DNA of 64,000 bases from Nemertoderma westbladi (GCA_032718475.1 JAUCBJ010006452.1:10949-74948); one strand, 5' to 3'. Shown: positions 1-54,236, counted from the stretch's first letter. Numbers and translations are program-made. Notes: generated from the sequence alone by a model not told the origin.

Positions 1-14
1 CCATCATAGTAGGC

Positions 15-950: not shown

Positions 951-1151
951 GTTGGACCGAGAGGAAAGAGACAGATACGTAGAAGTGCGGGTAGAGGTGT
1001 TACCTGTCTTTTAGAGGGAGCGCCTTGATTCTAGAAGTGGAGGGAGTAAGTTTGTGTGTATATTATTAGTCGTCCATTTTGGACTGAGGGGGGTGGGATT
1101 GAGGGCTAGACGCCCTTCCCACACAAAATAATAAAATATAATAAAAAGAGT

Positions 1152-8393: not shown

Positions 8394-9600
8394 TGTTCGC
8401 GCTTTCAGACCTTTGGCAGTTTAACCCGCCAAATTATGATGTCTTCTAGATATTAAATCGCTTTTTAGCCTATGACAAGTATTTGATTCACTACACTAGT
8501 CGAAACCAATCTGTGCGCGATCATTCACCCGCTGGATATACCCGGGGGATTGGGTTCGACGGTTTAATCTTATTGCTATGTAAGCCTAACGTATTATTCG
8601 ACTGACAGTATTATATAATCTCTGACAATATTATTCACCTTCGGGGAATATTAACAGTTCCTTTAGGACGTGGCGCTCTATCCATATAAACAGAGTTATG
8701 ACTTAAACTACTCACAACGATATGGCTTAATTATAATTCACATATATGGCGCATTCTTTAGGAAATGCTTCTTTAACAGACTCACTCATACACAATGCTG
8801 CACAATACTGCACATTAATCCGCCGATCTTCACTGATTTTAGTCACATATAAAAGGAACACCGACTGACTCATGTAGGGTCTATCAAATAACATTAGATT
8901 CACTTCAAACCACTTTAACATAAGTCACAATCGATATATGTAACCCTTCTCTCTTACCTTCGGTATATCAAGAATATTGGGTTTCGGGGTTGTTTCTCGT
9001 TATTCCAAATATAATAATTCATCCACAAATATAATGAATAACCGACAGCAAAGCAGTAATGTTAAGTTAAGTTGCACAGTATGGGCCAATTAACCAGTTT
9101 GTTTTGAGTTAAGACAATCAGCAATTAGTTTGCGAGTGATTCGTTAGTTAAAGGATATATGTCCTTATAATTAAACCTACTAGTGTGAAGCTAAAAAGCA
9201 TAAAAGCACAAAACACTACAAAGCCGTTCTTTCGTGGCTTTGAAAAACTCGTGACTACTACTCTATACGAGGATACCAACTACCCTTATTCCACGAAGCT
9301 CCCGTTCAACACAGAGAAAGAGCAGTGAGATAGGAAAATTTCAGTTCAGTAGCTCTGTGATAGGTCAAAATCAAAGCTAACTCAAATTCTATTGGGAGAT
9401 ACAAAAACAGGGCTATGACGCAACCTCCCTAGGCTGGTTGTCCGATTAAACAGAGCCCAGTTACCTGCTTACAGCAAATCAGCCAATAAGCTGGTAGCTT
9501 GCACTATTTTAGTTATAGATCCCCTTTAGAGTATTCTAGCGACCGGGGGGGAACTGGCCAGCAAAGCAAACGAACCAGTTATCCCACAAAAGCTTTTACA
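8394..9600 (-). repeat. 3' LTR of family B (1207 bp)
   Basis: TG...CA ends. About five substitutions relative to 25746-26952 were seen by eye. Confidence 0.96.
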
Positions 9601-9678
9601 CCGCTCCCAGAAAATGGGATTTAAGTCTATAAAATATACAAAATTACAGTTTCTAAAATATAAAAATACTCTAAACAG

Positions 9679-11568
9679 TTAGTCTTTCTTGCGCGGACGG
9701 CGTTTACGCAGTTTCTTGAGGCTAGCAAGAGTCCTTTTCTCTTTGGGGCGAGCCACTTTATGAGGAGGGCTGTAGCTCCTAGGTGAAGGGTGCAATACAA
9801 TTGCATCAGAAGGTGTAGGGTTACGATCGGTATACCCGCCGGTCGAAGTACCTGGTTGATTAATATCAACCTCAGTGGAGCGAGGTCTAACGGTCTCTAG
9901 AGCGCGTCTCAGGACAGCAGCTCCTACGGGTCCCTGACGGGTCGTCTGGACACTAGCGGTGGGTGGACCGTGAGTGGTAAGGAACTTTCGCGGTTTAATG
10001 GTTCTCTCCAGCTTGCGTTCTCGGGTTTGATATTCATATGGGCGCCGAGATACTTCCTGGAGTTCAGGATGCGAGTTCACAAAAATGTCGCCATACTCAG
10101 GGTCCTGACGGATAAAATTGATCAGGTGATATGTAGTTATATCATTAGGGTTGACGTTTCTAAGGTATTTTCTGACAAACTTGGTGGAAATACACTCACC
10201 AACACGCTTCATTAACTCGTAACTGGGTACGCATGTTTTCTGTTCAATCGACGCAAATAGGTAAGGATGGAACTCGTAAACTCCCTCGTAAGCTCGTCCA
10301 GGGTAATAGCGATGTCTGGATTCGCAATGTAAATCTGCGTTTGCTTCCCAAGCTCGAATGTATCGCAGGGTGATCATTTCGTCTACGCTCTCTAAATCGC
10401 GATTAAAGGGACAATTGTAACTTTCATGTCCTTTAAGTTGACAGTAGTGACATTGAGTCATAAATTGTGGGCAGAAGGCAAAAATATGAGAGTTATTAAG
10501 TCTGCAATAAGCACAATATATTTCCATCATCGGTTGTTCGAGGAAATAGGAGCAAGGTGCGTTGGAGTCGAGAGGAGTGAAGTGGTCTCTCGATGCGCAT
10601 AATCGACAACGTTTTCGAGAAACGTAGTTGGCGTGTCGATAATCGTACGCTGTGAGACGTTGTGGACCTTGATACCACTCTATGACATAATCATTGTCAC
10701 TGCTCCGGGAAGCTGTAGGCTGAATCGCTTCTGATTCCAAGCATACTGGCTCATCCTCCAGCTGCATAGACGAAGTGGGTGCGTCTGTTTCCGTAAGTGG
10801 ACCCACTGTCTGTATTTCCACGACAGAATAACCTATAGGTATTCGAGGTCTTTGTATAACCGATGAATGTAAGTTCTGTATACAAATTTCTTGAAAAACG
10901 GCAAATCCAGCGCTACTCAGTTTCTCAGCAGCTGAGTCTCTCAGACTGAGTTTGGTCAGCGCGCGGTCCTTGAACTGACTATCAACGTTACGGAACGGAG
11001 TCAGGAAGCGCCGGAAACATTCAAAACGTATAAACTTATTGTGTTCGTCTAACTTGGCGAGTTTAGTTCCAAGTATCAATGGGTGAGCGCGTATGGTACG
11101 ACTGCACACATCGGCTAGCCAACCGGCAAGTGCTGCGTTTTCAAAGATCGTGCATATAGCTAAGGAAGGACGAAGTGGAACACTCATAAAGCTATACACG
11201 GCACCAGGCGCAGTTAATGGTCCATCGAAATATAAACGAGAGTAATGATCTCCATATACTTGCTGGTAATTGATAGGATTTCCAACCTTGAAATTCCAAC
11301 CATATTCTTGAAAGGCAAGATGTCCGATGGATGTCCGTTGTACTTTAGTAATGCCGCAGGGGGTATTGGCATACATAGTGCGAAAGAAACCTCGGCCTTC
11401 GGCCCAAGGAGCAATCAGCTGAGTATCAACGAAAGGGTATGGAATGTTCTCCATATTCCGGAAGTCGTTTTGGAGGTCTCCATAAACAGCTGAGCCGATT
11501 TTTAGAATTCTTTCGTTAAACAACATTTCGAGTACAGGTTGGGGTAACATTGATCCATCGATACCCAT
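9679..11568 (-). CDS. Accessory ORF, C-terminal part: DEDDy/RNase D-like 3'-5' exonuclease-like domain plus triple zinc knuckle and basic tail
   Basis: LPQPVLEMLFNERILKIGSAVYGD...FVDT resembles the WRN/EXD/Mut-7 Exo II region. Knuckles are CRLCASRDH..C, CAYCRLNNSHIFAFC and CHYCQLKGHESYNC. The C-terminus KKLRKRRPRKK is NLS-like. Confidence 0.75.
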   Translation of the reverse strand: MGIDGSMLPQPVLEMLFNERILKIGSAVYGDLQNDFRNMENIPYPFVDTQLIAPWAEGRGFFRTMYANTPCGITKVQRTSIGHLAFQEYGWNFKVGNPINYQQVYGDHYSRLYFDGPLTAPGAVYSFMSVPLRPSLAICTIFENAALAGWLADVCSRTIRAHPLILGTKLAKLDEHNKFIRFECFRRFLTPFRNVDSQFKDRALTKLSLRDSAAEKLSSAGFAVFQEICIQNLHSSVIQRPRIPIGYSVVEIQTVGPLTETDAPTSSMQLEDEPVCLESEAIQPTASRSSDNDYVIEWYQGPQRLTAYDYRHANYVSRKRCRLCASRDHFTPLDSNAPCSYFLEQPMMEIYCAYCRLNNSHIFAFCPQFMTQCHYCQLKGHESYNCPFNRDLESVDEMITLRYIRAWEANADLHCESRHRYYPGRAYEGVYEFHPYLFASIEQKTCVPSYELMKRVGECISTKFVRKYLRNVNPNDITTYHLINFIRQDPEYGDIFVNSHPELQEVSRRPYEYQTRERKLERTIKPRKFLTTHGPPTASVQTTRQGPVGAAVLRRALETVRPRSTEVDINQPGTSTGGYTDRNPTPSDAIVLHPSPRSYSPPHKVARPKEKRTLASLKKLRKRRPRKKD

Positions 11569-11625
11569 GGCCGGTTTGCGCTCGGTGTCGGTGACGTAAC
11601 GCTGCGCGAGCTCGAATTGTCCATG

Positions 11626-13389
11626 TCAAAGTTTCTTTTGTATCTCCATAAGAGTTTCAAAAGAATAATCAATCACGTCGGAACACGCTCGAGTGAATAC
11701 GTGGGTAGAACCAGCAAGTCCTCGTATATGTATCATTCGCGTGGTTCCTAATTCTCCCACCGGAACGCTACCTTTGTTGTCATAAGTAACAACGCCATAC
11801 ATCTCGATAACGTTAAGAGTCTCGTTCCATTCTTTAGTGGCGTTTTCGAGAGTCATTCCCACTGGATGCCATAAAGTAGCGCACTCATTAGCATTGGGTA
11901 AATCTCTATACTTTAAGCATTGTGTAGTATAGGTTTCCACATCTCCATATCTTTTTACTCTTTCTTCCTCGAATAACACGTCAAGATTCCAGTGCACTAA
12001 TCGAGTTTTAATGAATCCATCAAGATTGTACGGAGGTGATGTTTCTTTCTCTATTCTAGAAATATTATACGGTTTTCGAAATGAGTTTAATTTAACTAGC
12101 TGATCTAGATGTTTTTGTAGTTGTTCGAGTTCGACAAGATCGAGAGGATTGATTAATGGTAGGAACCTCAGACTATGCGTAGGATCTTCCGGTTTCACCA
12201 TGTAATATTGCTTCAAATTGACGTAATAAGGGTGATCCTTAATTCCATAAAATGAGTCCGGCAAAGGTCTAGCGCGTATGTTAACATCGTGCACCATGCG
12301 ACGGACAAGATCCGCTCTATTGTCCGGAGGCTCAACAAGTACGCCATCGACACGAGCAGCCTCGACGGGTGGACGTTGTAGCATGGGAGCGTCAGCAACG
12401 AGCTCGTGAGATCTGAGATCAGTATTAACCGGTTGAGGCTGTACCGTAGCAAAGAGCTTGTCTTTAAACTGAGGAACCATCAAGGGGTGGAGGATCGTTT
12501 TGGAATAGAGATCCGTCACTAGAATTTGAACTTCTGGTTGGGCTAAAGCTGCTTCTTCCCTCTCAGTCAGCTCCATATGTCTCTCCTCGAGCTGATTTTC
12601 CTCCGCTTGTTGTTGCAAGCGCTCGTCCAGGAATTCCTGTAAAGAGTAGGTTCGTCCACGTTCTATGTCCTCCTCTAGATTTTGTATTTCTCTATCGAAC
12701 TGGGGTAAAGCTAGTTCTTTCACCGCTTGGACTTGTTGTTGCAATTTACGTTTCTCCAAGCAATCGTAAGTTCCTTTTCCAATTTTCTGCCGAATAGCGT
12801 CTAATGCATTTCGTATCACGCTCTCTTCGACTTCTGTAACAGGTTGGATCGGAGGAAGGCCAGGACGGTTGTAGGGGTTAAACGGTGATATTAGATGACC
12901 GCGTCCTAGTCCAGCGAGGTAAGGTTGGCGAATAGCAAACAAACCCACTACCGGAGTGCCACCAATCAACTGTTCAGGTAACACTAGATCTTTGAACAGT
13001 GAGTACAGTTCGGGAGGATCCGTAATACTATTAGGATCTAGAGTTTGAGGTATCACTTGGGAATGGGGAGGTCTGACCGAGTATTCCGGAACTCTGATCA
13101 TGGGTTTATTCAATGATCGCTTAAGGCGCGCGACCGTAGGTGATACGTCGAAAAGGTTACGCTCGAAACTCCCATAAGTATATCGTGTAAAACTGTGTTT
13201 AGCACAACGTCTCCGAGGATGTTTATGCCTTTCGATTTGCTGGTTAGGTCTAGGGCATTCATCACAGTAATACCAAAGACGCACATCTTGAAGGGGAAAA
13301 GCGGGTGATCGCTCTCCAGTTTTACAATATTCCTCCATCTGTTCGAAGCTATCTGGAACGACAGGTAGCACGTTTATCAGGTTCTTCAA
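11626..13389 (-). CDS. Accessory ORF, middle part (coiled coil; ends with Exo I-like VVTYDNKG); in frame with 9679-11568 across a single TGA
   Basis: 587-aa ORF. The sequence reads CTT TGA CAT GGA...GCC ATG GGT, giving 19 open codons in the same frame up to the next ORF. Confidence 0.7.
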   Translation of the reverse strand: MKNLINVLPVVPDSFEQMEEYCKTGERSPAFPLQDVRLWYYCDECPRPNQQIERHKHPRRRCAKHSFTRYTYGSFERNLFDVSPTVARLKRSLNKPMIRVPEYSVRPPHSQVIPQTLDPNSITDPPELYSLFKDLVLPEQLIGGTPVVGLFAIRQPYLAGLGRGHLISPFNPYNRPGLPPIQPVTEVEESVIRNALDAIRQKIGKGTYDCLEKRKLQQQVQAVKELALPQFDREIQNLEEDIERGRTYSLQEFLDERLQQQAEENQLEERHMELTEREEAALAQPEVQILVTDLYSKTILHPLMVPQFKDKLFATVQPQPVNTDLRSHELVADAPMLQRPPVEAARVDGVLVEPPDNRADLVRRMVHDVNIRARPLPDSFYGIKDHPYYVNLKQYYMVKPEDPTHSLRFLPLINPLDLVELEQLQKHLDQLVKLNSFRKPYNISRIEKETSPPYNLDGFIKTRLVHWNLDVLFEEERVKRYGDVETYTTQCLKYRDLPNANECATLWHPVGMTLENATKEWNETLNVIEMYGVVTYDNKGSVPVGELGTTRMIHIRGLAGSTHVFTRACSDVIDYSFETLMEIQKKL

Positions 13390-13771
13390 CGTCTTCTCTT
13401 TCGAGTTTGTTTCGAATAGAGTTCTCGTGTTCTATTCTCGATTTATCGTTTCGACTCCGCTGGGTATGATATTTAAATAAAACCATTTCCCTTTTGGTGT
13501 CTACATCGTCCGTATCGTGTAAATCGATAGGGTGACCAGTAGTCAAGAAGTCCATATACATACCATTACGATGCGTATAGCGAGCCGTGAACTTTCTATA
13601 ATCCAATTCACGCGTAAGTTGCTCCTGGGACATTGGCGGTTCGATATAACAACCATTGTCCTCCGTAGTAGTTGGATCAGCGTCGCCGCGTATCAAGCTA
13701 TCAACAAACGCTTGAAAAGGTAGAGTATATCTCTCCCTGATACCAAGATCATCTTCTATTAATTCAGTCAT
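13349..13771 (-). CDS. Accessory ORF, N-terminal part (140 aa), overlapping the next ORF in the +1 frame
   Basis: ATG preceded by GCAG-AT. A homologous degenerate copy lies at 48440-48888. Confidence 0.65.
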   Translation of the reverse strand: MTELIEDDLGIRERYTLPFQAFVDSLIRGDADPTTTEDNGCYIEPPMSQEQLTRELDYRKFTARYTHRNGMYMDFLTTGHPIDLHDTDDVDTKREMVLFKYHTQRSRNDKSRIEHENSIRNKLEREDVEEPDKRATCRSR

Positions 13772-15403
13772 ATCTGCTATACGAGTTCACCAATATTATA
13801 ATGAGTTTATATATTGTTAGGCGAGCGGGCGTCGCTGCCTATTTCTCCCGTGCCCCCAGACAGTAAGAGATTCTCAGCGCCGATGTACCGCTGTAGCTGT
13901 ACTTTCGCCAACGACGTAGCTGTACAACGACAACGATAACCGGCACAAGTCACTCCACTGTCCGTCCCAAAGGCTTAGATGTACTTCAGGTTTTCCTTGG
14001 AGAGTTAGGTTACTTTCACGATTGCGACTAGCTACTGTAAACACACTTTAGCAGTAACATTCACCTATAAACTCACAAATACCACACAACTTGTCACAAC
14101 TACACACATTCGGGCCATTTGTCCGTTAGTCAATGCCTTCCAGAATGTCACTGTATTGTTATGTTTCCTTGGATACTAGCAGTGCACTATTTATTCCCTA
14201 TGCTATTCAATGGGACAAGCTTTCTATTGTTCTTTTAACTCAATTCTAATTCTAGCGTGGTTTTTGCTATGTGACATTATGTAAAGCTAGCGGTAGAATT
14301 AGGGTAATTCCAATGCATACAGATCTGGGATGTTATTTAATAGTAATTCTTTAATAGTCAATGTCCTGTTTTATACATGACTTTATGAATTTTATCGGCT
14401 ATTGACTATGTTTGGGAGACTTTCATACACGCATACGCATAATAATATAAATCTCCGCTCCCTTGATCTATTAATTAATGGAATTTTGGGAATGTTATAA
14501 ATTGCGTAAAATGGCAATTTATTAAATTCATTAAAAGACATGAATTTAAATTTATTCCCTGAAATTTTATTATTTGATAATTAAATTGACATATTTTGAT
14601 TCCAGAACATCCTTAATTCTATGGAAATTGTCCTTTTAAGAATATCGGTAAATGCGACGATATCTTAATTGACTAGAATTGTTGAAGGATCTGAATTTTA
14701 CAGATTTTGACTTATTAGATTTGCAAATATTAAATAATTAATATTTGAGATGGGCACCGATTTATTCCAGAACTTGTCTGGGGACGTTAACCACTGATTC
14801 TATAATTTGTCTTTCAAGTATATCGGTGGGTGCCACGATATCTTAATCGACTAGAATTACAGATGGTCAAAGGGTTTAACAGATTTATTTTGCGTTATAC
14901 GCTACTGTTAAAGGGACATCACGCTACTATATGTATTATTTAATATACGGTATGAGAGCAATATCGCACGAAGCAATGTCAGTGTGAAGAGGCAAGTCGT
15001 TTCCAAGGTCTACCCAGAGCTTGGTTTAGCCGAGACACGAGGATCTGAACTTTGCATTCCTAATACTCTGCCTACCAATAATACTTAAATATAGTAGTGG
15101 CTTTATTGTACTTTAATAAGTACGGACATTTCATCTTACTGTAGTTACGTATTTATAATATAATACGGACAGTAAGGAAGAGAAAAAATAATTATTTCTT
15201 CGCCGTCTCACTAAATATAATATAAGTAATTACGTACGTAATAAACACGAATATATTGCACTATTCTACTAAATAATCGCTAAATAATATTCTACTAAAT
15301 TAAATAAAACGATTATAATAAAATTACATAGTAATACATACATAAAATATAAAATAATAAAATAATATAAAATAATAGAGTCACACGCCCACTCCGAACG
15401 ATA

Positions 15404-18400
15404 TTAAGTTGGGGAGCCCCTAGATGTCGGTTGAATTAGGGAAGTGGTCGTGGGAAGAGTTTCTTGCCTTCCATAGTTTCCGGAGAGCTCTCTGTCTCTT
15501 TCCAGTAAACATAAACGACCCACTGGGCGGTTGAGCTGTTGAGTCTCAAAGACTATCCCTGGTTTCTTAAAGTTACGACGCATGACGACGAGTTCTACTG
15601 ATCGCACTAAGCCATCGCTCGAGATATAAGTCTCGATGATTCGTCCTGTTTGCCATCGCTTACGTGGGAGATCGGGGTCCACAATAAGCACCATGTCTCC
15701 AGTGCTGACGTTTTCTTGCTGCGCAAACCACTTAGTTCGAAGTTGTAGAGTGGGCAGGTAATGTTTCTCGAAATGGTCAGCGAAATGACGGGATAGCAAC
15801 TGCATAAGTTGCCAGGTTCGACGGCAGTACTCGTCTCCGTCGGTGATCTCCGATTGTGGGAGCATGGCTACGGGCTTCTTCAGCAGAAAGTGCGCGGGTG
15901 TTAGCGCTTCCAGGGAATCAGGATTTGAAGAGACTGGCATAAGCGGTCTTTCGTTGAGATAGGCGGCGATTTCCTCCATTAACGTCCGCAATAATTCGTC
16001 GGTGAGATAAGCGCGACAAGGCACAACAAAGTGGAACGCAGTCTTCACGCTCCTAATCAATCTCTCCCAACTTCCTCCCCACCAAGGGGCGTCGGCGGCA
16101 TTGAAGGTCCAGCTAGACGCTGTTATCTTTAGCTGATTGTCCACCTGTCTTCCGTTCCAGTCCTTTATGTAAGCTTGAATTTCGTTGTTGGCGCCAATGA
16201 AGTTCGTTCCCTTATCCGATCTCATCGTGTTACTGGTTCCGAAGCGAGCGATCTGTCGTCGTAAACTCAACACGAAGCTGTTGGTGGATAGATCGTTTAC
16301 CATATCGAGATGGATAGCTCTACAAGTCATACAAACGAAGATGACACACCATCTTTTGACTATAGTCCAGGCACGATATACTTCAATAGGGCCAAATAAA
16401 TCCACACCGGTATTAGTAAAGGGTGGTTCATAGAAGCTTACTCTTTCCCTAGGTAATTCTGCCTCTCGCTGTGTTAAAGGCCTACTGAATGCTTTCCTAC
16501 AGGGTATGCAGTTCCTAAGAACTTGGTTCAGAGCCCTACGGGGTTTATAAAAATAGTAGCGAGTTCGAATTTCGCTCAGAACTCTTTCTCTACCAGCATG
16601 GTACAGTTTGCTATGAACATCTACAATTATCTTGATTTGTATGTCAAGATTTCTAATGAGGATGGGAAACTTAGTGTCAAAGGATAATGGGGCGTTAGTT
16701 AGCCTACCTCCAACACGTATTAATCCATCTATCATGGTACTAGAGAAGCGATCCCTTAAGCGCATCTGCGGATTTCTTAACAACAGGAAATACTTATCGG
16801 AATCCTTATAGCATTGTAGGAGTCTTAGCATCTGTTTGTTGGTTTCATCATGCTCCTGGTAACTGATCTTCTCCGTTAGAAACCTGTCGGTTATCTTGTA
16901 CTTTGGAAGATCTTTAACAGCATGTACTCGTGCAGATGTTGATGGAGCATCATCACTATTGGTCTTTGTCCCGGAGTAACGATGATGAAAACATCGTTTC
17001 AAATAAGTAACAGCTTTACAAAGCCGATTCCAGGAACTGTAGTGACGTATCGCTCTCTGCAAGAGAGGTGAGAGTCCTTGCGAGATATCTGGTATTCCAG
17101 ATTTCCAATCCTTGTCACGGATTTCCAAGATTTCTTTGGTCGTAGCAGTGGGTTTCTGATCCAAAGCATCCTCTCCGGAAGTAAATAATACAGATAGATC
17201 AACCGCAGGTTTAAACAACTTCGATTTACTCGCTCGAGTTTTGGGTTTAACTTTCTCCGCTCCCTTGGCCTGTCTGATCTCTGCTGTTGTGAGATGGGGA
17301 GGCCATTCCTCTTCTTCTCGGTAGAGAAAGTCAGGTCCTCCTAACCATTCGGGAGTATTTACCAATTCCTTTGGAGTTGCTCCTCGGGAAGCGATATCCG
17401 CTGGATTAATCGTTCCGGGGCAATGTCTCCATTGATCCATCGTCGTGCGACTAAGTATGATGGCTACTCTGTTGGTAACGAAGACGCTGAACTGACAGAC
17501 TTCATTGGTTATATACTCTAACACGAGTAAAGCGTCGGTCCAATAGACAGTTTTCTCTAAGGGATAGTCAATCTGTTCTGTTACATTCCGGCCGATGGCT
17601 GTAGCGTATAGAGCCGCCTTTAACTCCGCTCGAGGAACTTTCAACTTGTTGTTGATTAATGCCTTAGAAGTAACCAAGGCGACTTTGATTCCATCCGGAG
17701 TTTCCACTCTTAGATAGGCTACTATACCTATTCCCATATCGCTGGCGTCTCCAAACACATGGAGTTGATAGGAATACGTAGGGAGAACATGACCAAAATA
17801 TGAACGGGAAATTATAAAATCCTCGATAGCAGGTAGGGAATCTTCCCATTTCATCCACTTCTTCAATAATTCTCCCTTAAGTGGATCGTCCCATGAGTGG
17901 TTTTCAAGCCACATTTGTTGTACCAAACTACGAGCAATCAATATAACTGGGCTAATAAATCCCAATGGATCGAAATAAGTGCTCAGTATACTTAAGCAAA
18001 TCCGTTTGGTTCGAACGGGATTATCTCGCTGTTTTAGTTGGAAAAACAGGATATCTCTCTCTGTGTCCCATTTCAAGCCGAGTGTCTTGGTTTCTGGCAG
18101 ATCATCTTTGATCAAATCGAGATCTTTCGCTCCTCGATCTTCCGCAGGGATCGACTCCAGAAACTCACGGGAGTTGCTGGTGAATTTCGTTAATCTAAAC
18201 CCACCTCTTTTTAAGCACTCTACCGTTCCTTTTGCGACCTCAATGGCTTCTTCAACTGATGGAAGGGACTTCAGATTGTCGTCCATGTATATGTCTCGCT
18301 TGATGTTGTCGATCACTTCCTTAGAGAAGGCCTCTCGGTTGTCTTCTGCAGTGGCACGCACTACTGAACAGGCGTTGGAAGGGCTTGAGATTATCCCAAA

Positions 18401-21400
18401 GGCCTGGATGGTCATCCAGTACTCCACCGGTTGCTGGTTGAGGTCTCCTTCGGGCCACCATAGAAATCGTAGGCTATCTCGATCCTTATCCAACACTTTG
18501 ACTTGCAAGAACATGCCTTCTATATCGGAGGCGAAAGCAATCGAATATTGTCTCAATCTTAAAAGAATTCCCAACAAAGATTGAAGTAAGTTGGGTCCGG
18601 GTAACAATTCAGAGTTAAGGGATTGACCCATGTAAAGAGCGGAGCCATCAAACACTACTCTCACTTCGTTTGGTTTACCGGGTTTAGGAACGTAATGGTG
18701 AGTTAAGTAATACGTTCTTTCAGTCACAGGTGTTTCTTCCGGTACCCTCTCCGCGTATCCCTTATTAATAAATTTTTCCAGCTGTGTTTGATACATTGCT
18801 TTAGCTGAAGAATTAGCCGTAAGGCGTCGATGGAGTTGCGCGATTCTTTTTTCCGCCAAAGGTCTATTATTGATGAACTTCGGTTCTCTCTTGCGGAAAG
18901 GTAAACCAACTTCATACCTACCTTGATCTTTGAGGAAACGTGTAGTTGTCTCTTGGATCTGCTTGGCCCTTTCCTCTTCCACCGATAATGCTTTATCGTA
19001 GGAATTGGGCTCTACCGCCTCTTGCGTAAAGAATCGGACAGCATGTTCATCTCGAGTCTTGGCATTATGACGCTCAATGACGTCATTTAACTCGTCGTTA
19101 TAAGCTTCTTGTTCAGATGGATAAAGAAGTTGACATAAGTTCACTTGGTTTTGCCAAGCCTCGTTTTCCTTAAGGAGATCGATGATATTCTCCTCATCAA
19201 AAAGCTGGTGAATGTCGTCGTTATCTGAGGAGTATGGAGTTCCCTCAGTTAAATCGTCTCCTTCACTAGTATCATCTTCCCATTCACTCACCTGGCAGAC
19301 TCGCTCTTGCGGTAATCTTTCTCTGAGTGTTCTACGGGAAGGGCCAGTAAAGTACCAACCTACTCTAGTTCTTACCGCATAGGTCTGTAGTGGCTGCGGT
19401 TGAGCAGGCCGTTTCTCTAATGTCTCCAGCGCCTCATGCGCGTTTTGGCCGATGAGTATTTGCACTCCAGGATAATCAGTCGGGAATCGAGGTATGTTAA
19501 GATGTTGGATGCTCTCATCCTCATCCCAATTATAAAGGTCTGCTTGAGTAGTAGCGAAGTTCTTTATAGCCACCATTTTCACTGACCTTATGCTATGTTC
19601 TCCTAGTTCGTCCTGGGGGGTGGACAACGCTCCTAAATAATAATCTGCTGTTATTGTAGATTTCCAAACTTGCATGATTCCGGACATGTTTAGCTTGGTT
19701 CGGAACTTGGGTTGTCCATTGAATATGTCTTCGGCTAGTTCTTTATCAATGAATGTTCCTGTGCTGCCGGAATCCAGGAGGGCGTTCACCACACAACTCC
19801 GTTCAGGCCCGTGTACCCTTACCTGCACCACAGGAAACTCTCGGATCCCTACATTGGAAGATGGCTCTTTCCAAGATGGTTGTCTTTCAGAAGTAGTTAG
19901 GGTTAGGTCGCTGTCTGTGTCTTTTTCATATGTGAGTGCTCGATACACTGCGGTATTTATCATGTAACAGGATTCGTTTTCGTCGGAGAACTCATCCGTG
20001 TAGAATCCTTCCATCTCAGATTGATCAGTGTCGTTCACATCACTGAATTGGACATGTAGTTCGGAATCACTTACCTGATTCGGACTATTTCGCTCGAATT
20101 CAGCGTGCAACAAGATATGATGTTTCGCACCACACTTTGCACACCTTAGGTCAGAAAAACAGGTTCGCCGTTGGTGTCCTTGTCTGAGGCAATTATAACA
20201 TAACCGCTTATCCCACATAACTTCACGTCTCTCAGTTAATGATTTCTTTAGAAATTCATCACACATATTCAAACGGTGGGTCCCGTCGCATAGCGCACAT
20301 TTCGGTTTGATGTTACTTACCTTATTCTGAGTCACATTGTGTACACTCGCCTTTTCTTCGGGCTTTCTCACCTGAATTCTCTTGGGAGACGTAGGAGGAG
20401 TTTTTCTTACCTGTTCTCTCCTGTCATTTGTTCGAGACTTAAATTTACTCACCTGATCTTTAGGCATTTTATTCACGTAATAAGATCTCTCAGTGTCCTT
20501 CCCGCTATCTTCTCCCTGAGAAGTCGGGCTTTCGCCGTCGTCTGTATAACACACTGGTGTTATCTTTCTCCTAGAGACGGGTTTTTCACTTACCTTGTTT
20601 TCCGGTGTCTTCTCTCTGGATTGCTTGAGGAGTTGCAATTTCACTTCTCCATCCAGGAATGACATGAGATCAGCCATGGTAGGGTCTCGTCGCTGTTGTT
20701 CCATCATATATAGTACTTTCTTATCCCAGCGTGTGCCTACCCCACCTTTCGGTAAAGTAGAAGCCACAGCTCCAATGACCATAGAACTTTGGTATTCATG
20801 AGACTTACCTAACCAATCTAATTGTCTACAGATCTCTTGAATCTCATCGGAAAACTCTATTATCCCACTGCTGATGAACTTTCTGGGCGCTACTAATTTT
20901 GCATATAAATACTTGGCGATATTATTCCTATTACCATACCTGATGTTTAGTGTATCCCAAACTTGTCTTAATCCGTCTGGATGTCCAATAAACTTTAACG
21001 CCATTAATTTGGGAGATCCTTCCAAGCACTCGATGAGGAATCTAAGTTTCTCTCCATTATATAGGACAGAGTTCTGTATGTTATCTTTGTAATATTCATT
21101 AAAAGGTAACCATTTCATCTCATCTCCATTGAACTTGACGATCTCTCCCACCTTCACCGCTTGCCGGGCTTCGGTTCTAGCCATTTGACGCGTAAAACTT
21201 TCTTGGGCCATCGTGTTATTTAATATCGAGCTATCGGTATATAAATTTCTCGGATTATGATCAGTTCTATATGGGATATCATTATCAACAGGTCTATAAT
21301 TACCCTTAATAGGGTTCACTATAGGAGTTTCTACTTCGCTAGCAGTATAAATGCGTGTAGGCTCCACACCTTGCGCATGTGATACTTCAGACCTAACAGG

Positions 21401-23479
21401 TTGACATATTGTTACAAGGGGTGGTGGTATACCCCTTTGAATGTTCACTAATTTATCGCGCTCTAGCGCGATACTTTGCTGCACTTCTTGCAACTCTAGT
21501 CTACTTTCCCTTACTGTGCCCTTAAATTGTTGAACAGTCTCCTGCATCTGCCCGAGCAGGAGATCCACCCCCCGCCGTCTCTCGTCCACCCATTCGACCG
21601 CCGAAGCGGGAGTCGCCAACGTTGTAGCGGGCGGACGAGGGACAACGGGCCACAAATTATGAATGTTTCGCTCGGGGTCCAGGACCTGAACTGTCTCCTG
21701 GGCAGTTCTACGGGGCACAGGTAGCTTAGTGCTATGCAGAGGGAATTTAGAGGTAACTTCAGGGAGTACAGGTGTGTCTATCACCGAAGGGGTGATTTCG
21801 AGAACAGGCCTAATTATTTCAGGCTCATCTACTATAGTAGGGAGTCTTTCTATTTTAATTATTTGGTCTGTGGGCTCTGTACTACCTAAATTGTTGTTAT
21901 TTAGTTGCCTTCTAACAGCTGGAGGCAAATCAGGCAATTTCTGACGGTGGAATGTTCTTTTACGTCTACTTAGACGAGATCTATTTCCCTTGCCTTTAGT
22001 ATCAGTGGTATCGCCTTCCTCAGATGATGTATAACCCTGTCTTTTGGGAGTAGATCGACTCATCATCTGCATATTACTAGCTGTTAACTGTTTATTTATG
22101 CAGTCTTGATTCTCTTGAAGATTTTCCAACTCCAGTTGGGTGATCTCTTCCGCTGCTCTCCGTTCTGCTTCCGCCACCGCTGCCGCTTTTGCCTCTGCCG
22201 CTGCCGCCTTTGCCTTTACCTCGGCTTCTGCTGCTGCCGCTTTTGCCTCTGCCACGGCTTCTGCCAAGGTCGCTTTTCTTTCTGCCTCTGCCACGGCTGC
22301 TATCTTTCTGTCTTCTATACGTTTTTTCCTTACTTGTTCTTCCTTTTCTCTAGCGATGCGGAGTTGTTCATCGAATTTAGCTTGATTCGCCGCTAACCTA
22401 TCTACATCTATTGCATCCAACACACGCTGGGCTCCTTCACTATTAGGGCTAAGTCCATCTAGCCTTCTCCTCAACTCTTCATCTCCCAAAAAACGCTGAT
22501 AGTCGTCAATATAGATGTCAATGGCATCCCTCTTATGCGGTTTCTCTGCCGTCGCTTCACTTTCCGCTTGGAAAAAAGTAGCGTCCGTTGATTCTCCATG
22601 GGTTGAGCGCTCCTCCAACTGAGCTTTCCACTGAGCTGCTCCTTGAACCTGGCGATTCACTCGTTGAAACCAAGTCTTTACGGCAACTTGCAACGACGTG
22701 TCTTGTCTTCTTTTAGAAGCCTCTTCAAAGGCTGATAAGATTAGCCTAATTTGCAGAACTCTTTCTCTAACTTGATAAAGCAGCTGTCCCTGCTCTTGAG
22801 GTCCTTGAGGTTGTTGTAACAGTTGTTTTTCTACTCGCTCCATAGAGCTGAAGAATCCTTGTGCGTATCCGGCTGCAGACCTCTTCCATACAGCTGGATC
22901 GATGGTTTCCTTGGCTACTCCCATCCGGTGTATGTCTTCCCAGGCAGCTTCTGATAAATTAAACGGGAGTCCGGGTCCGGGGAAGTTCCATTGCAACTCG
23001 ACAATAGACTTCAGTTCTTCCCTCGTGTATCCCGCATAACTATCTCTAGTTGATCGTTGACTTCTCGCCCAATCGATCTGGTGTTCTTCCACCGCGATCA
23101 ATAACCTAGTGAGCACGGCTGCAGGAAGGATGAGAAGGGGATCCGAATAAACCGCATCCGTTATCTCTGCTCCGCACTCGGGTTTCAGCTCTACAGTATC
23201 CTCACTACTGGAGCTGTTGGGCCGCTGAGAAATAAGTTCCCGGCTCGCGGGTTTTCGCTGTTCCGCTGCTTCTTGGTCCCGCTTGACCTGAGCTCGAGTG
23301 CCTATGATAGACCTACGATGTTGGACTAGCCTAGGTTCGGTTATTACTACTGGAGGGATGACCTTCCTCACAGTGGGAGGTGAACTGGACTTACGACCAG
23401 ACGGTTCTACATCTCTATCTGAGTCGCAGATCGTTACATCTAATAAACTGTCTGACAGGTTCTGCTTAGTATCAGACAT
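15404..23479 (-). CDS. BEL/Pao Gag-Pol polyprotein (2691 aa)
   Basis: Gag FNGDEMKWLPF with a triple CCHC, protease LLDSGS, RT YMDD, RNase H FGDAS/PRAEL/WTD, integrase HHCC plus GVDLFGP/SDKGTNF/WGGSWERL. Order is PR-RT-RH-IN. Confidence 0.97.
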   Translation of the reverse strand: MSDTKQNLSDSLLDVTICDSDRDVEPSGRKSSSPPTVRKVIPPVVITEPRLVQHRRSIIGTRAQVKRDQEAAEQRKPASRELISQRPNSSSSEDTVELKPECGAEITDAVYSDPLLILPAAVLTRLLIAVEEHQIDWARSQRSTRDSYAGYTREELKSIVELQWNFPGPGLPFNLSEAAWEDIHRMGVAKETIDPAVWKRSAAGYAQGFFSSMERVEKQLLQQPQGPQEQGQLLYQVRERVLQIRLILSAFEEASKRRQDTSLQVAVKTWFQRVNRQVQGAAQWKAQLEERSTHGESTDATFFQAESEATAEKPHKRDAIDIYIDDYQRFLGDEELRRRLDGLSPNSEGAQRVLDAIDVDRLAANQAKFDEQLRIAREKEEQVRKKRIEDRKIAAVAEAERKATLAEAVAEAKAAAAEAEVKAKAAAAEAKAAAVAEAERRAAEEITQLELENLQENQDCINKQLTASNMQMMSRSTPKRQGYTSSEEGDTTDTKGKGNRSRLSRRKRTFHRQKLPDLPPAVRRQLNNNNLGSTEPTDQIIKIERLPTIVDEPEIIRPVLEITPSVIDTPVLPEVTSKFPLHSTKLPVPRRTAQETVQVLDPERNIHNLWPVVPRPPATTLATPASAVEWVDERRRGVDLLLGQMQETVQQFKGTVRESRLELQEVQQSIALERDKLVNIQRGIPPPLVTICQPVRSEVSHAQGVEPTRIYTASEVETPIVNPIKGNYRPVDNDIPYRTDHNPRNLYTDSSILNNTMAQESFTRQMARTEARQAVKVGEIVKFNGDEMKWLPFNEYYKDNIQNSVLYNGEKLRFLIECLEGSPKLMALKFIGHPDGLRQVWDTLNIRYGNRNNIAKYLYAKLVAPRKFISSGIIEFSDEIQEICRQLDWLGKSHEYQSSMVIGAVASTLPKGGVGTRWDKKVLYMMEQQRRDPTMADLMSFLDGEVKLQLLKQSREKTPENKVSEKPVSRRKITPVCYTDDGESPTSQGEDSGKDTERSYYVNKMPKDQVSKFKSRTNDRREQVRKTPPTSPKRIQVRKPEEKASVHNVTQNKVSNIKPKCALCDGTHRLNMCDEFLKKSLTERREVMWDKRLCYNCLRQGHQRRTCFSDLRCAKCGAKHHILLHAEFERNSPNQVSDSELHVQFSDVNDTDQSEMEGFYTDEFSDENESCYMINTAVYRALTYEKDTDSDLTLTTSERQPSWKEPSSNVGIREFPVVQVRVHGPERSCVVNALLDSGSTGTFIDKELAEDIFNGQPKFRTKLNMSGIMQVWKSTITADYYLGALSTPQDELGEHSIRSVKMVAIKNFATTQADLYNWDEDESIQHLNIPRFPTDYPGVQILIGQNAHEALETLEKRPAQPQPLQTYAVRTRVGWYFTGPSRRTLRERLPQERVCQVSEWEDDTSEGDDLTEGTPYSSDNDDIHQLFDEENIIDLLKENEAWQNQVNLCQLLYPSEQEAYNDELNDVIERHNAKTRDEHAVRFFTQEAVEPNSYDKALSVEEERAKQIQETTTRFLKDQGRYEVGLPFRKREPKFINNRPLAEKRIAQLHRRLTANSSAKAMYQTQLEKFINKGYAERVPEETPVTERTYYLTHHYVPKPGKPNEVRVVFDGSALYMGQSLNSELLPGPNLLQSLLGILLRLRQYSIAFASDIEGMFLQVKVLDKDRDSLRFLWWPEGDLNQQPVEYWMTIQAFGIISSPSNACSVVRATAEDNREAFSKEVIDNIKRDIYMDDNLKSLPSVEEAIEVAKGTVECLKRGGFRLTKFTSNSREFLESIPAEDRGAKDLDLIKDDLPETKTLGLKWDTERDILFFQLKQRDNPVRTKRICLSILSTYFDPLGFISPVILIARSLVQQMWLENHSWDDPLKGELLKKWMKWEDSLPAIEDFIISRSYFGHVLPTYSYQLHVFGDASDMGIGIVAYLRVETPDGIKVALVTSKALINNKLKVPRAELKAALYATAIGRNVTEQIDYPLEKTVYWTDALLVLEYITNEVCQFSVFVTNRVAIILSRTTMDQWRHCPGTINPADIASRGATPKELVNTPEWLGGPDFLYREEEEWPPHLTTAEIRQAKGAEKVKPKTRASKSKLFKPAVDLSVLFTSGEDALDQKPTATTKEILEIRDKDWKSGIPDISQGLSPLLQRAIRHYSSWNRLCKAVTYLKRCFHHRYSGTKTNSDDAPSTSARVHAVKDLPKYKITDRFLTEKISYQEHDETNKQMLRLLQCYKDSDKYFLLLRNPQMRLRDRFSSTMIDGLIRVGGRLTNAPLSFDTKFPILIRNLDIQIKIIVDVHSKLYHAGRERVLSEIRTRYYFYKPRRALNQVLRNCIPCRKAFSRPLTQREAELPRERVSFYEPPFTNTGVDLFGPIEVYRAWTIVKRWCVIFVCMTCRAIHLDMVNDLSTNSFVLSLRRQIARFGTSNTMRSDKGTNFIGANNEIQAYIKDWNGRQVDNQLKITASSWTFNAADAPWWGGSWERLIRSVKTAFHFVVPCRAYLTDELLRTLMEEIAAYLNERPLMPVSSNPDSLEALTPAHFLLKKPVAMLPQSEITDGDEYCRRTWQLMQLLSRHFADHFEKHYLPTLQLRTKWFAQQENVSTGDMVLIVDPDLPRKRWQTGRIIETYISSDGLVRSVELVVMRRNFKKPGIVFETQQLNRPVGRLCLLERDRELSGNYGRQETLPTTTSLIQPTSRGSPT

Positions 23480-25733: not shown

Positions 25734-25745
25734 TATATCCTTTAA
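25734..25745 (-). promoter_or_regulatory. Non-tRNA primer-binding-site position of family B (TTAAAGGATATA), complementary to LTR 26500-26511
   Basis: Immediately follows the 5' LTR, has no TGG, and has an exact 12-nt complement inside the LTR. Confidence 0.6.
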
Positions 25746-26952
25746 TGTTCGCGCTTTCAGACCTTTGGCAGTTTAACCCGCCAAATTATGATGTCTTCTA
25801 GATATTAAATCGCTTTTTAGCCTATGACAAGTATTTGATTCACTACACTAGTCGAAACCAATCTGTGCGCGATCATTCACCCGCTGGATATACCCGGGGG
25901 ATTGGGTTTGACGGTTTAATCTTATTGCTATGTAAGCCTAACGTATTATTCGACTGACAGTATTATATAATCTCTGACAATATTATTCACCTTCGGGGAA
26001 TATTAACAGTTCCTTTAGGACGTGGCGCTCTATCCATATAAACAGAGTTATGACTTAAACTACTCACAACGATATGGCTTAATTATAATTCACATATATG
26101 GCGCATTCTTTAGGAAATGCTTCTTTAACAGACTCACTCATACACAATGCTGCACAATACTGCACACTAATCTGCCGATCTTCACTGATTTTAGTCACAT
26201 ATAAAAGGAACACCGACTGACTCATGTAGGGTCTATCAAATAACATTAGATTCACTTCAAACCACTTTAACATAAGTCACAATCGATATATGTAACCCTT
26301 CTCTCTTACCTTCGGTATATCAAGAATATTGGGTTTCGGGGTTGTTTCTCGTTATTCCAAATATAATAATTCATCCACAAATATAATGAATAACCGACAG
26401 CAAAGCAGTAATGTTAAGTTAAGTTGCACAGTATTGGCCAATTAACCAGTTTGTTTTGAGTTAAGACAATCAGCAATTAGTTTGCGAGTGATTCGTTAGT
26501 TAAAGGATATATGTCCTTATAATTAAACCTACTAGTGTGAAGCTAAAAAGCATAAAAGCACAAAACACTACAAAGCCGTTCTTTCGTGGCTTTGAAAAAC
26601 TCGTGACTACTACTCTATACGAGGATACCAACTACCCTTATTCCACGAAGCTCCCGTTCAACACAGAGAAAGAGCAGTGAGATAGGAAAATTTCAGTTCA
26701 GTAGCTCTGTGATAGGTCAAAATCAAAGCTAACTCAAATTCTATTGGGAGATACAAAAACAGGGCTATGACGCAACCTCCCTAGGCTGGTTGTCCGATTA
26801 AACAGAGCCCAGATACCTGCTTACAGCAAATCAGCCAATAAGCTGGTAGCTTGCACTATTTTAGTTATAGATCCCCTTTAGAGTATTCTAGCGACCGGGG
26901 GGGAACTGGCCAGCAAAGCAAACGAACCAGTTATCCCACAAAAGCTTTTACA
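25746..26952 (-). repeat. 5' LTR of family B (1207 bp)
   Basis: Near-identical to 8394-9600 and followed on the + strand by the TSD TAAAT. Confidence 0.96.
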
Positions 26953-29700: not shown

Positions 29701-29761
29701 TATAAATTTGGCCATGGTGGATTACGACGTGCTGTTTTTTCATCAAAAGTTATTTCATCAA

Positions 29762-37013: not shown

Positions 37014-37029
37014 TGTTCAGAGGACAGTA

Positions 37030-45556: not shown

Positions 45557-46177
45557 TGTCATTTTGCCGCGTTATCGCTCATCGTCGACATCGAACTTTC
45601 CGCTTAGCCGTCGCGTAATATTCTTCCGATACCATTCCGTTCTATCGATTAATAAACTCTTTTGTCGTCCACGGCAACCAACTTCTTCGCGAACATCCAA
45701 ACTTCATCTTTCCGTTGAATATTTACTAACACTGTAAGTAAAATCTGCCTTCCACCATCTCCATCGACGCCGCTAGCAAACAATTTACATTTAATGTCTA
45801 CCGATACAACAGTATTGCAGTAGGCTCATTATTAATTACTATCAGACTGCGGTGCTACCGATAGCCTAAACCGTGATTGAGGCATTCGATCAATAGGCCT
45901 ACAACTGTTTATCTGCTTATAGTATTTTTTATCTTTTTACAAATAATCAACTTATTTTTCTAGTGTCATTTTGCCGCGTTATCGCTCATCGTCGACAACA
46001 AACTTTCCGCGTTTCCATTGTGTAATATTTTTTCGATACCATTCCGTTCTATCGGTTAATAAATTATCTCGTCGTCCACGTCAACCAACTTCCTCACAAA
46101 CTTCCAAACTTCTTCTTTCCGTGAATATTAACTAATACCGTAAGTAAAATCTGCCGGTGTCTGTCATTTCGCCGCAT
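45557..46177 (+). repeat. About 190-bp direct repeats (45557, 45964, and a third at 46162 cut by the LTR)
   Basis: TGTCATTTTGCCGCGTTATCGCTCATCGTCGACA...GTAAGTAAAATCTGCC is repeated. Confidence 0.8.
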
Positions 46178-47447
46178 TGTACGCGCTTTTGTAGACCTTT
46201 AGCAGTTTAACCTGCCAAAATTTATATGTCTTTAATTGTTAAATTGACTTTAGAAGATGACAAAGATTTAACACAAAACAAACAAAAACATTAGTCGAAG
46301 CCAGTCGATGCGCGTTCATTCACCCGATGGTTACACCCGGGAGACTGGATTCGTATGCTTAGATTTATTGCGGTGAAGCCTACTGTATTATTCGATTGAT
46401 CACTAATATATAATCTCTGACAAGTATTATTCACTTTCGGGAAATATTAGCAGTTCCTTTAGGACGTGGCGTTCTACCTATGTAAACAGAGCTATGACTT
46501 ATACTAAACACAACGATATGGCTTAGAATTCAAGTATGAGACGCATTCTTTAGGAGATGCTTAGTTATCAGCCACAATCATACACACTACCGGTAACGCA
46601 CAATACTGCTCACTGGTATGCCGACAGTTACTGACTTTGATCAGGTATAAAGAGGAACACACTGGACTCATGTAGTATCTATTAAACAGCATTAGATTCA
46701 CTACAAACACAATAATATAAGTCGCAATTGTTGTATGTATCCTGTCTCTCTAACCTGTAGTGTATCAAGAATATTGGAAAATTTGGGTTGTTTATCGATA
46801 TTCTTCAACTAATAACATCCAACTAGACTGATACAAATAATCACAAACAGTAAAAGCAGTAAGACGGTAGGTTACGATATGATAAGTATGAATGAGTTGT
46901 TGTGATAAGATTGGACCGTGATTAGACCGTGGTTTGATAACAGTTATACTTTCTATAATCTAAGCCTACTAAGGTTCCTTCTAAAGTCTGAAACATAGAG
47001 TCATTCCAAAAGCCGATGTTCAGGCAATAGGAACGACATAACACACATACTGACTCGCCCAGCCTCGATCTGGAGAGTATCTCTTCAGAGAAAACGAAAA
47101 TCGCCCTGATTGGCCGTTAGGCAGAAACAAAGAAACCAGGTGTCCAATGAGGGCTCCTTCCACGTCATCAGCCAGCTGGGAGATGTCGTAATCGGAATTC
47201 TTCCCACGACATGGTGACAGAGAGAATGCCGCATTGCGGGTTTTGTACCTTGTTATGTCCGCTAAAGCACACATCCAGAAGAATCAACATTTATTTCCGT
47301 TAAAAACACCTATACATTACTTTGAGGGCCAGGGAATTAATTATATCCGTAAACGCGTTTACAGTAGGTTTTAGAGTATTTGAGCGCACGGGGGGAAAAC
47401 TGGATTGCGGAGCAAAGGAGCAGTTATATCCCATAGAAGCTTTTACA
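46178..47447 (-). repeat. 3' LTR (1270 bp), diverged homolog of the family B LTR
   Basis: TGTACGCGCTTT...GCTTTTACA followed by CCGCTCCCAGAAAAT, as at 9601. Confidence 0.9.
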
Positions 47448-47525
47448 CCGCTCCCAGAAAATGGGATTTAAGTCTATAAAATATACTAAATCACAGTTTC
47501 TAATATACGTAAATACTCTAAACAG

Positions 47526-53321: not shown

Positions 53322-54236
53322 CGCCTGACGACCTATAGCCGTATCAGTAGTATAGGATGCTAGTACACGGCATCATGGTCACCCGTAGCCCATCATTACC
53401 ATCCATTTCTACTCCTTCCTCCAATAAGAAGCCACCATTTCAACCATTAGCAGTGGTCGTTATTATTTCAACCAATCAGATGTCAGCATTTCAAGCTTAA
53501 TCATGGTAACTTTTCAAGTTCCCGCATCTTCCGCTAGAGGCGTTATTAGTCACCCAACGCTACTCCTTCCTCCAATCATAAGCCTTTATCTTCCAGGTGT
53601 TCGGGTGTCTACACTTAGCATCAGGTAACTTCTACTATTTTTCACCAGTAACTAAATTTAATTTTGCAATTTTTCAGATAACAAAATATTCATCTTCGCA
53701 TAGCCTAACCTCACGATGCATGGCTAGCTCCCAACCCATCGCTACTCAATCCACAGCTGTTACCCACTCAACCAACAGCGATGCTTGCCTAACCCACCGG
53801 TTATTCACCTTTTCACCACATCACCACCACCACCGCCTCTATCGCTGTATACTGTATATGATGGCGACGTGGCCACCAACTACCCGCATCGCCTGTATAT
53901 GATATTATATCGATTGCCAATGCCACGACTGCTGTTGTCAAACCAACAAACCAGTATGATACATGAAATTCCATCCCGTTCCAGCTATGCGTATACATGC
54001 ATTAGTGATTATTATTATTACGCAATAATTGTTGATTATACAGTAGTTCCCTACCGGCTAATCAACCAATCAATAATCCGAATTTAGGCTATTTTTCAGT
54101 TTAAGACTTGTATTATTTTTGTTGATAATATCTTATATATAATCTCTTGCTTTAATCACAATTAATAATTTGTAATGGTTTTAGTTTAAAAAGTTTTTAC
54201 TTTCTTTGTTTGATTTACAATAAAATAAATTTAATA

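Follow-up and report, generated by a model that had tools for sequence, protein, structure and literature searches.

Background and overview of the locus

Genes for exonucleases of the DEDDy type are known as the third open reading frame (ORF) of the rotifer long terminal repeat (LTR) elements Juno and Vesta, and are also found in Athena/Terminon elements (PMC5408684, PMC6431247, in the available text of both reports). According to the same available text, the rotifer carriers include LTR and Penelope-like elements, which are unrelated classes, and the third ORFs are typically spliced (PMC5408684); a first-pass annotation of the DNA studied here had described such ORFs as cargo of LTR elements of bdelloid rotifers, in agreement with that text. 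The locus in question lies in a stretch of 64,000 nucleotides (nt) from Nemertoderma westbladi (GCA_032718475.1, JAUCBJ010006452.1:10949-74948; this whole stretch is hereafter called the window), in which an LTR-bounded element of BEL/Pao type carries a long accessory gene at the position of env. As proposed by the first-pass annotation, this gene is not an env and its product very probably combines a DEDDy-like fold (RNase D/EXD/WRN type) with three zinc knuckles; the assignment, made by comparison of sequences, is well supported and statistically modest, and is carried by several weak, agreeing tests and by one distant homologous protein, P0002. In the reading preferred here, which as a whole is given a probability of about 0.38, the window holds a decayed copy of a long BEL/Pao-type accessory gene encoding an active 3'-to-5' exonuclease and three RNA-binding knuckles, which would counter host silencing RNAs in the nucleus.

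Juno and Vesta belong to Ty3/gypsy-like lineages, whereas the element of the window is of BEL/Pao type. As far as the available text of the rotifer study goes, both cases have in common an RNase D-like gene at the env position, the absence of transmembrane or env features and a largely intact motif (PMC5408684). By comparison of descriptions, the motif is written DEED in that text whereas the last acidic site is a glutamate in the window protein and in P0002; furthermore, the available text describes a Cys-His-Cys motif for the rotifer genes and mentions neither CCHC knuckles nor a long N-terminal region (PMC5408684). No BEL/Pao element with an exonuclease ORF was listed by full-text literature searches, a scope that leaves aside Repbase reports, subscription journals and supplements, which may hold one, and the word 'exonuclease' is absent from the main text of PMC3118150 and PMC13524379. 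With the gene of the window, transposon-borne DEDDy nucleases, for which the published cases found here are all from rotifer elements, would reach a second superfamily of LTR elements; to the rotifer work it adds signs of purifying selection on the gene and a knuckle fusion that recurs in a distant protein.

Organization of the accessory gene

Three minus-strand frames are present 3' of gag-pol (13786-13349, with an ATG at 13771; 13431-11626; and 11625-9679). These three sense ORFs beyond an open pol, already seen in the first pass, total about 1,360 codons and occupy the env position, the final frame stopping 78 nt ahead of the 3' LTR. The second and third frames (pieces 2 and 3) are in fact one frame, separated by a single stop codon (Table 1). 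An env identity was considered and rejected, since the accessory pieces contain no hydrophobic segment of env or transmembrane type (best 19-residue Kyte-Doolittle mean 1.54) and match no fusion-protein family or structure in Pfam or in the PDB sequence search; the first-pass description of the gene as non-env is borne out.

The Exo I-, Exo II- and Exo III-like motifs and the basic tail quoted in the first pass are all found in the sequence, and the tail is a candidate nuclear localisation signal. The three CCHC knuckles reported at the same time do exist, but the canonical spacing is restricted to the third (C-x2-C-x4-H-x4-C), the two others being C-x2-C-x4-H-x9-C and C-x2-C-x5-H-x4-C; the sole knuckle match given by Pfam in the accessory pieces is a weak one (PF13917, E 0.38).

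Probable identity of the exonuclease domain

A HMMER search of 1.84 billion representative proteins returned two matches at E ≤ 0.001, P0002 and P0003, the second of which matches the knuckles only and was set aside as a homolog. P0002 (648 residues, a singleton from a 9.4-kb contig; E 3.5e-6 in this search) has the same layout as the window gene, namely an exonuclease and three knuckles. In pairwise comparison with the window protein, its nuclease (Exo II) block is 31% identical over 112 residues (E 8e-13) and its knuckles match at E 5e-5, none of 2000 shuffles of the knuckle region matching as well. In a language-model atlas, the N-terminal domain of P0002 gave values of 0.94-0.95, with 24 of 30 hits falling in clusters with 34% members of PF01612 (3'-5' exonuclease), which makes it read as such an enzyme; this reading covers P0002, and the atlas holds no result for the window protein. 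On an RNase D-type profile, the D-x-E, D and Y-x3-E residues of P0002 are in register, and the Exo II aspartate is aligned to that of RNase D in both piece 3 and P0002.

Searches made with the letters of the window point in the same direction. Only two NCBIfam models match piece 3, and both are RNase D models (TIGR01388, E 0.01; the other, E 0.069). A two-row profile built from piece 3 and P0002 gave 23 weak matches at E ≤ 0.1 in 201 bacterial genomes, which is about the number expected by chance; 20 of the 23 lie on the Exo II block and RNase D genes are present at 17 of the 20 loci fetched, while the single best match is not RNase D. A 50-row profile of bacterial DEDDy proteins, free of those loci, placed piece 3 at the top of 255 frames (E 0.019), and the profile-profile score was 33.5, a value that none of 60 shuffles approached beyond 19.1; an earlier profile that included 14 rows chosen for their match to the query had given E 0.0018 and a score of 37.8, and the rank was kept after removal of these rows.

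The AlphaFold model of the P0002 domain (predicted local distance difference test score, pLDDT, 74.6) has EXD2, Egalitarian, RNase D, EXD1, WRN, Nibbler and Rrp6 as its neighbours in Foldseek and VIA-align (VIA ranks 1-15: Z 11.4-13.7, root-mean-square deviation 2.8-3.6, 145-172 aligned), but 50 of the 52 rows of the alignment used for the model are bacterial DEDDy proteins, 12 of them chosen by likeness to the query, which makes the fold match partly circular and a sign of compatibility only. EXD2 is at the top of the Foldseek list, and WRN and the exonucleases of family-A polymerases tie in VIA-align; no cellular DEDDy subfamily stands out as the nearest. Compared with cellular DEDDy proteins (RNase D 1yt3, EXD2 6k1c, WRN 2e6l, Nibbler 7jw6, EXD1 5fiq, Rrp6 3saf), the P0002 model shares the fold and the order of motifs, and the window protein shares the Exo II block. 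The differences lie in an identity of at most 22%, in insertions before Exo III, in the glutamate at the last acidic site, and in the fusion of the window protein to knuckles and to about 650 N-terminal residues without family match. The Pfam listings of piece 3 and P0002 contain no HRDC family. The DnaQ/RNase D fold match that the first pass had led to expect was obtained in the language-model comparison, at modest strength in the profile comparisons and in partly circular form in the structure comparison.

Besides the circularity of the model, several results weigh against this assignment. The modelled structure is that of P0002 and not that of the window protein; single-sequence AlphaFold prediction of piece 3 gave a pLDDT of 32.6 and no usable model, and all fold statistics computed from the letters of the window are weak. 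In the accessory pieces no exonuclease is detected by Pfam, P0002 itself reaching just E 0.2, and the PDB sequence searches yielded no exonuclease. Taken alone, the Exo I piece does no better than shuffles, of which 1803 of 2000 score as well against P0002 and 18 of 60 as well on the RNase D profile, and the distance from Exo I to Exo II is about 30 residues longer than in P0002. The likeness could in principle be accidental, or a vestige confined to a single short block, in a gene with some other function: only the Exo II block, of about 45 residues, scores alone, and word-based protein searches found no further relative among proteins of near lengths (piece 3, 0 of 2,465 candidates; P0002 domain, only itself) or shorter lengths (P0002 domain, 0 of 239), longer proteins being outside their scope although the whole gene would have about 1,400 residues. 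Independent tests nevertheless converge on one family, P0002 shares both the nuclease block and the knuckles, and the other copies of the gene match the motif at two sites, so that a chance likeness is very unlikely and a DEDDy-like domain is retained.

No exonuclease match was obtained by tblastn against phages and plasmids or in PHROGs, and no match was found in viral contigs searched with piece 3 and with the two-row alignment, or in metagenomes searched with P0002. A 1.2-kb metagenome contig retrieved with the two-row alignment (L155:644-1088) matches the Exo II block only, with 56% identity to piece 3 over 25 residues, and its frames look by eye like a broken or intron-split 3'-5' exonuclease.

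Concerning the knuckles, those of yeast Air2 (2lli, 3nyb) resemble the present ones by their tandem arrangement and similar spacing and gave the best, although non-significant, match (E 4.1; P0002, E 0.064); they differ in that here three knuckles and the nuclease share one chain. Retroviral nucleocapsids match the P0002 knuckles better than Air2 does (E 1e-4), and in view of this match a gag-like origin of the knuckles appears as likely.

Other copies of the gene and selection

The stretch, or part of it, occurs in six of seven listed public runs. Contigs from four of these runs were aligned to 4.8 kb, three of them from one organism in three separate studies and the fourth from a second organism (X1, X3, X4 and X5 in all). 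The numbers of contigs per run on the 4.8 kb (15,943, 7,245, 414 and 148) and the several hundred variant places in each (610 to 1,014) show that the family is multi-copy, although they give no copy number; the gene is thus far from being confined to one insertion.

The stop codon between pieces 2 and 3 is replaced by another base in 99.7% (X1) and 99.8% (X3) of the contig depth, and throughout it in X4 and X5. At 13369/13370, contigs end loosely from both sides in the four runs, and the window copy lacks, at the joint of pieces 1 and 2, a stretch carried by the other copies, of about 100 bases according to the lengths of the loose ends; by eye, this stretch looks like the second unit of a short internal repeat. 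Among the 14 variants at 13400-13440, 10 are at third positions in the frame of piece 1, whereas the frame of piece 2 would make 12 of them non-synonymous and one a stop, which indicates that the frame changes at this joint. The three accessory frames are one gene, decayed in the window copy. The three ORFs of the first pass are present as frames but are not three genes, since the stop and the missing stretch are peculiar to this copy. For the same reasons, two programmed events were rejected: read-through of the stop, which is missing from the bulk of the copies, and a frameshift at the joint of pieces 1 and 2, where the other copies have extra sequence.

Substitutions were counted in the best-supported 40 of 1,167 variant rows, a selected subset that yields counts and not a dN/dS ratio (non-synonymous to synonymous substitution rates). 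After setting aside the stop, two LTR rows and three upstream rows, 34 of the 40 lie in the frames, and a site was called private to the window copy when it differs in at least 98% of the depth in both X1 and X3. Variation that is shared or polymorphic between the copies amounts to 18 synonymous and two non-synonymous sites (p 1e-8 against 0.28 expected), an excess far from the equal rates of a gene without constraint, whereas private sites comprise five synonymous and nine non-synonymous ones, as without selection (Fisher p 0.002 versus shared sites). A second, decayed relative of the element in the window (Table 1) points the same way, differing from it by 14, 7 and 27 substitutions at first, second and third codon positions in piece 1, by 42, 58 and 94 in the first part of piece 2 and by 64, 57 and 231 in a gag-pol block. 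From the divergence of the LTRs, 8.5 (2.8-19.8) substitutions would be expected to have arisen in the gene after insertion, a number compatible with the 15 private ones listed. The accessory gene is under purifying selection.

The decayed relative lacks the part that matches 9842-12571, which holds the exonuclease and the knuckles, as well as most of pol. A similar deletion, from 9823 to 12575 and with several junction variants, is present in X1, X3 and X5, and suggests an amplified non-autonomous form without the nuclease. With its natural copies, deletion derivatives and a dead copy, this high-copy family makes the role of non-env third genes accessible to population genetics and enzyme assay.

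State of the catalytic motifs

The first-pass annotation had considered two acidic positions as substituted, from E to K in Exo I and from D to S in Exo III, and had proposed an RNA-binding pseudonuclease. The Exo I D-x-E is indeed absent from the window copy and present in P0002, but the codon of the lysine (11775-11773) is a private one, another base being found in 99.9-100% of the depth in the four runs; at this second site of the motif, P0002 and the other copies agree. In Exo III, the serine probably results from a wrong register. The Exo III block of P0002 scores best, without gaps, at 11178-11137 among all offsets in piece 3 (14, versus -3 for the register at 11220), and this likely register ends in a glutamate in both the window protein and P0002, whereas that at 11220 ends in a serine. 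The cysteine found there at the tyrosine of the motif (11154-11152) is likewise private to the window copy, the other copies agreeing with P0002 and keeping the tyrosine. In neither register is the strict Y-x3-D of Exo III present, the last site being a glutamate (preferred register and P0002) or a serine, and the domain is therefore called 'DEDDy-like'.

On the other side of the balance, the RNase D profile selects the 11220 register of Exo III on the window copy, in which the tyrosine of the 11178-11137 register is missing. The other three acidic codons have no row in the best-supported 40 of the 1,167 variants, which proves nothing as to their state. Moreover, two of the 14 private substitutions listed fall on predicted catalytic codons (11775-11773 and 11154-11152), which is above chance (p 0.001 to 0.035 according to the total used); host selection for dead copies is one possibility to account for this excess.

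This excess, together with the glutamate or serine at the last acidic site and the presence of EXD1 and Egalitarian among the structural neighbours of the P0002 model, would fit a fold without catalysis, comparable to EXD1, Egalitarian or Maelstrom, that binds or localises the element RNA or acts as a decoy for host factors. Such a pseudonuclease is nonetheless quite unlikely, given that both the lysine of Exo I and the cysteine of Exo III are private, 99.9-100% of the depth in the four runs differing from the window copy, that the other copies match P0002 at both damaged codons, and that P0002, which is 31% identical over the block, retains D-x-E, D and Y-x3-E. Since the lost sites are either private or likely derived from the register, and provided that the fold is correctly assigned, the intact copies of the family probably encode an active nuclease. 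The case illustrates the risk of calling a pseudoenzyme from a single copy.

Possible role in counter-silencing

In the preferred reading, the accessory protein would be made from a spliced or separate message and, by its basic tail, located in the nucleus, where the knuckles would bind single-stranded RNA and the nuclease would take off nucleotides at the 3' end, RNA being the presumed substrate. Knuckles of Air2 hold single-stranded RNA in the Rrp6/TRAMP pathway of yeast. The nuclease would act in trans, as suggested by the forms from which it is deleted in the window and in X1, X3 and X5, and which indicate that it is not needed in cis, and would shorten or destroy the host RNAs that silence the element. 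The occurrence of DEDDy genes on unrelated classes of elements points to a function independent of any one priming mechanism, and the close structural neighbours of the P0002 model include the small-RNA pathway proteins Nibbler and EXD1. Counter-silencing was chosen as the likeliest role on account of these unrelated carriers and of a clade with small-RNA enzymes; it is the least certain step of the chain, and among the roles considered it is held at a little less than even odds. If true, it would provide a rare enzyme-type suppressor from an animal retrotransposon.

This role has to be weighed against the presence of EXD2 and WRN among the top structural neighbours, both of which also act on DNA. 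The enzyme could instead process DNA ends, either trimming the ends of the cDNA like WRN or EXD2 or proofreading reverse transcription, and in this way aid the copying of an 18-kb genome; the first rank of EXD2 in Foldseek and the ties of WRN and family-A polymerase exonucleases in VIA-align would agree with this, as would a genome nearly twice the size range given by ICTV, the international committee for virus taxonomy. A DNA-end enzyme is, however, rather improbable, because the protein has its own gene outside gag-pol and no obvious way of entering the particle, because knuckles suit RNA, and because the number of variant places per run gives no sign of unusual fidelity.

Anatomy of the element

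The element spans 18,559 bp on the minus strand (window 26952-8394). Its two LTRs show five differences (99.6% identity) and are flanked on the outside by an identical 5-base target-site duplication. The gag-pol frame is uninterrupted over 2,702 codons from stop to stop and matches BEL/Pao-diagnostic Pfam families, namely PF03564, PF05380 (E 1e-35), PF17921, PF18701 (E 2e-19) and, weakly, PF13650; the order protease, reverse transcriptase (RT), RNase H and integrase is that expected for BEL/Pao, the RT core being recognised by eye only. The 5' leader (23480-25745, about 2.27 kb) is unusually long, with repeats of about 288 bp and about 76 bp inside it. The spacer between pol and the accessory gene ends in an AG placed directly before the accessory ATG and also present in the decayed second copy, which could be a candidate splice acceptor. 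A TATA-like element near 13810 was rejected as an internal promoter, since it is absent from the second copy and a deletion of 4 bases overlaps it in other copies. A search of viral contigs with the RT region of the element gave no match.

The LTRs, the single gag-pol, the domain order, the diagnostic Pfam families and the short purine tract are as described for Belpaoviridae (PMC8742986). The element departs from that description by its size (18.6 kb versus 4.2-10 kb), by a third gene that is not env and by the absence of an 18-nt primer site of tRNA type (PMC8742986). It is of BEL/Pao type by its domains and falls outside the ICTV description in genome size and primer site, and hence it is labelled 'BEL/Pao-type' and not a typical member.

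Table 1. Coordinates of the features of the element and of its decayed relative, in positions of the window
Feature	Position	Strand	Remarks
5' LTR	25746..26952	-	1,207 bp, TG...CA; from LTR comparison
Self-complementary LTR segment, candidate self-primer	26500..26511	-	12 nt, LTR positions 442-453; equivalent in 3' LTR 9148-9159
Primer-binding position	25734..25745	-	directly after 5' LTR; pairs with LTR segment 26500..26511
gag-pol ORF	15404..23479	-	2,691 codons from first ATG; order gag, protease, RT/RNase H, integrase
Spacer between pol and accessory gene	13772..15403	-	1,632 nt, non-coding, 20 ATGs; repeat of ~180 bp
Accessory piece 1	13370..13771	-	134 codons without family match; coding in this frame to ~13370
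Break 1	13369..13370		stretch missing relative to other copies; frame changes
Accessory piece 2	11629..13369	-	no family match over ~510 residues, with Pro-rich and Glu/Gln-rich parts; exonuclease domain starts after these
Exo I-like motif	11793-11770	-	in piece 2; lysine codon 11775-11773 private to window copy
Break 2, in-frame stop	11626..11628	-	missing from bulk of contig depth
Accessory piece 3, exonuclease core	11056..11625	-	Exo II block 11502-11419 (Exo II-like motif 11502-11473)
Alternative Exo III (first-pass register)	11220-11188	-	PL at 11220
Preferred Exo III (likely)	11178-11137	-	cysteine codon 11154-11152 private to window copy
Three Cys/His zinc knuckles	10410..10608	-	one canonical, two of variant spacing
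Basic C-terminal tail and stop	9679..9760	-	direct reading
3' LTR	8394..9600	-	1,207 bp, TG...CA; preceded by weak purine-rich tract
Second, decayed relative	46176..53345	-	76-92% identical by block; internally deleted

Primer site and possible self-priming

No TGG is present in the 40 nt that follow the 5' LTR, a search that did not cover internal tRNA fragments, and neither a tRNA gene nor an Rfam family was found inside the element (Rfam E ≤ 1, window 8300-27000). The 12 nt directly after the 5' LTR are exactly complementary to positions 442-453 of the LTR, and a complementarity of 12 was reached in one of 3000 dinucleotide shuffles of the LTR. This segment is not kept in the LTR of the decayed relative, whose primer site is lost. 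Self-priming has been described for Tf1 and proposed for Tj1, in which the primer site likewise pairs with part of the LTR of the element itself; these belong to another superfamily, and the available text mentions no accessory nuclease for them (PMC4600332). On the basis of this pairing, the element is a candidate for self-priming.

These observations bear on another role, the maturation of a primer, in which an active exonuclease would trim the annealed RNA of the element to the 12-base duplex, leaving a 3'-OH for a tRNA-free start, while the knuckles would perform the annealing. The missing TGG, the 12-nt pairing and the precedent of Tf1 and Tj1 are in its favour, and in the available text of their study Rodriguez et al. 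put forward that the DEDDy ORFs of rotifers process the 3' ends of element RNA (PMC5408684). The LTR segment is, however, not conserved in the decayed relative. Primers of the Tf1 type are freed by a cut, a role of RNase H that is beyond an exonuclease. Primer maturation is considered an unlikely role, although it would represent a new way of starting reverse transcription. A broader arrangement, in which a tRNA-independent BEL/Pao element would possess its own primer-making machine, with a knuckle-guided exonuclease and the self-priming site as one system and with the enzyme possibly doubling as an Rrp6/Air2-like shield against silencing, is speculative and also judged unlikely, and counter-silencing is kept as the preferred role.

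Other features of the window

A run of AT-rich open frames at 56165-63604 (plus strand) comprises a P-loop protein resembling packaging ATPases, an integrase of the rve family (E 4e-11), a protease of adenovirus type (E 1e-4) and unassigned capsid-sized frames, and likely represents, from these matches, a Polinton/Maverick element cut by the end of the window. Repeat units of 161 bp, both direct and inverted, are located just before these genes (54765-55561). Another broken BEL/Pao-like element (32183-36375, plus strand) shares 35% identity with the pol of the main element and is interrupted and flanked by a tandem repeat of 36/37/73 bp (arrays at about 29700-31630 and 36270-37020).

A frame of 249 codons (43157-43906, minus strand) has a signal-peptide-like start, several cysteines, a C-terminal hydrophobic stretch and no Pfam match, and is possibly a host surface protein. 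Fragments resembling, by eye, pieces of non-LTR retrotransposon endonuclease and RT lie at 27818-28591 (minus strand), 40203-40670 (plus strand) and about 5600-7600 (minus strand). Finally, the purine-skewed region 1-4500 (plus strand) contains a 102-bp tandem repeat and a frame of 503 codons, which has a Cys/His stretch weakly matching the accessory knuckles (E 5e-5) and is probably the gag of another LTR element.

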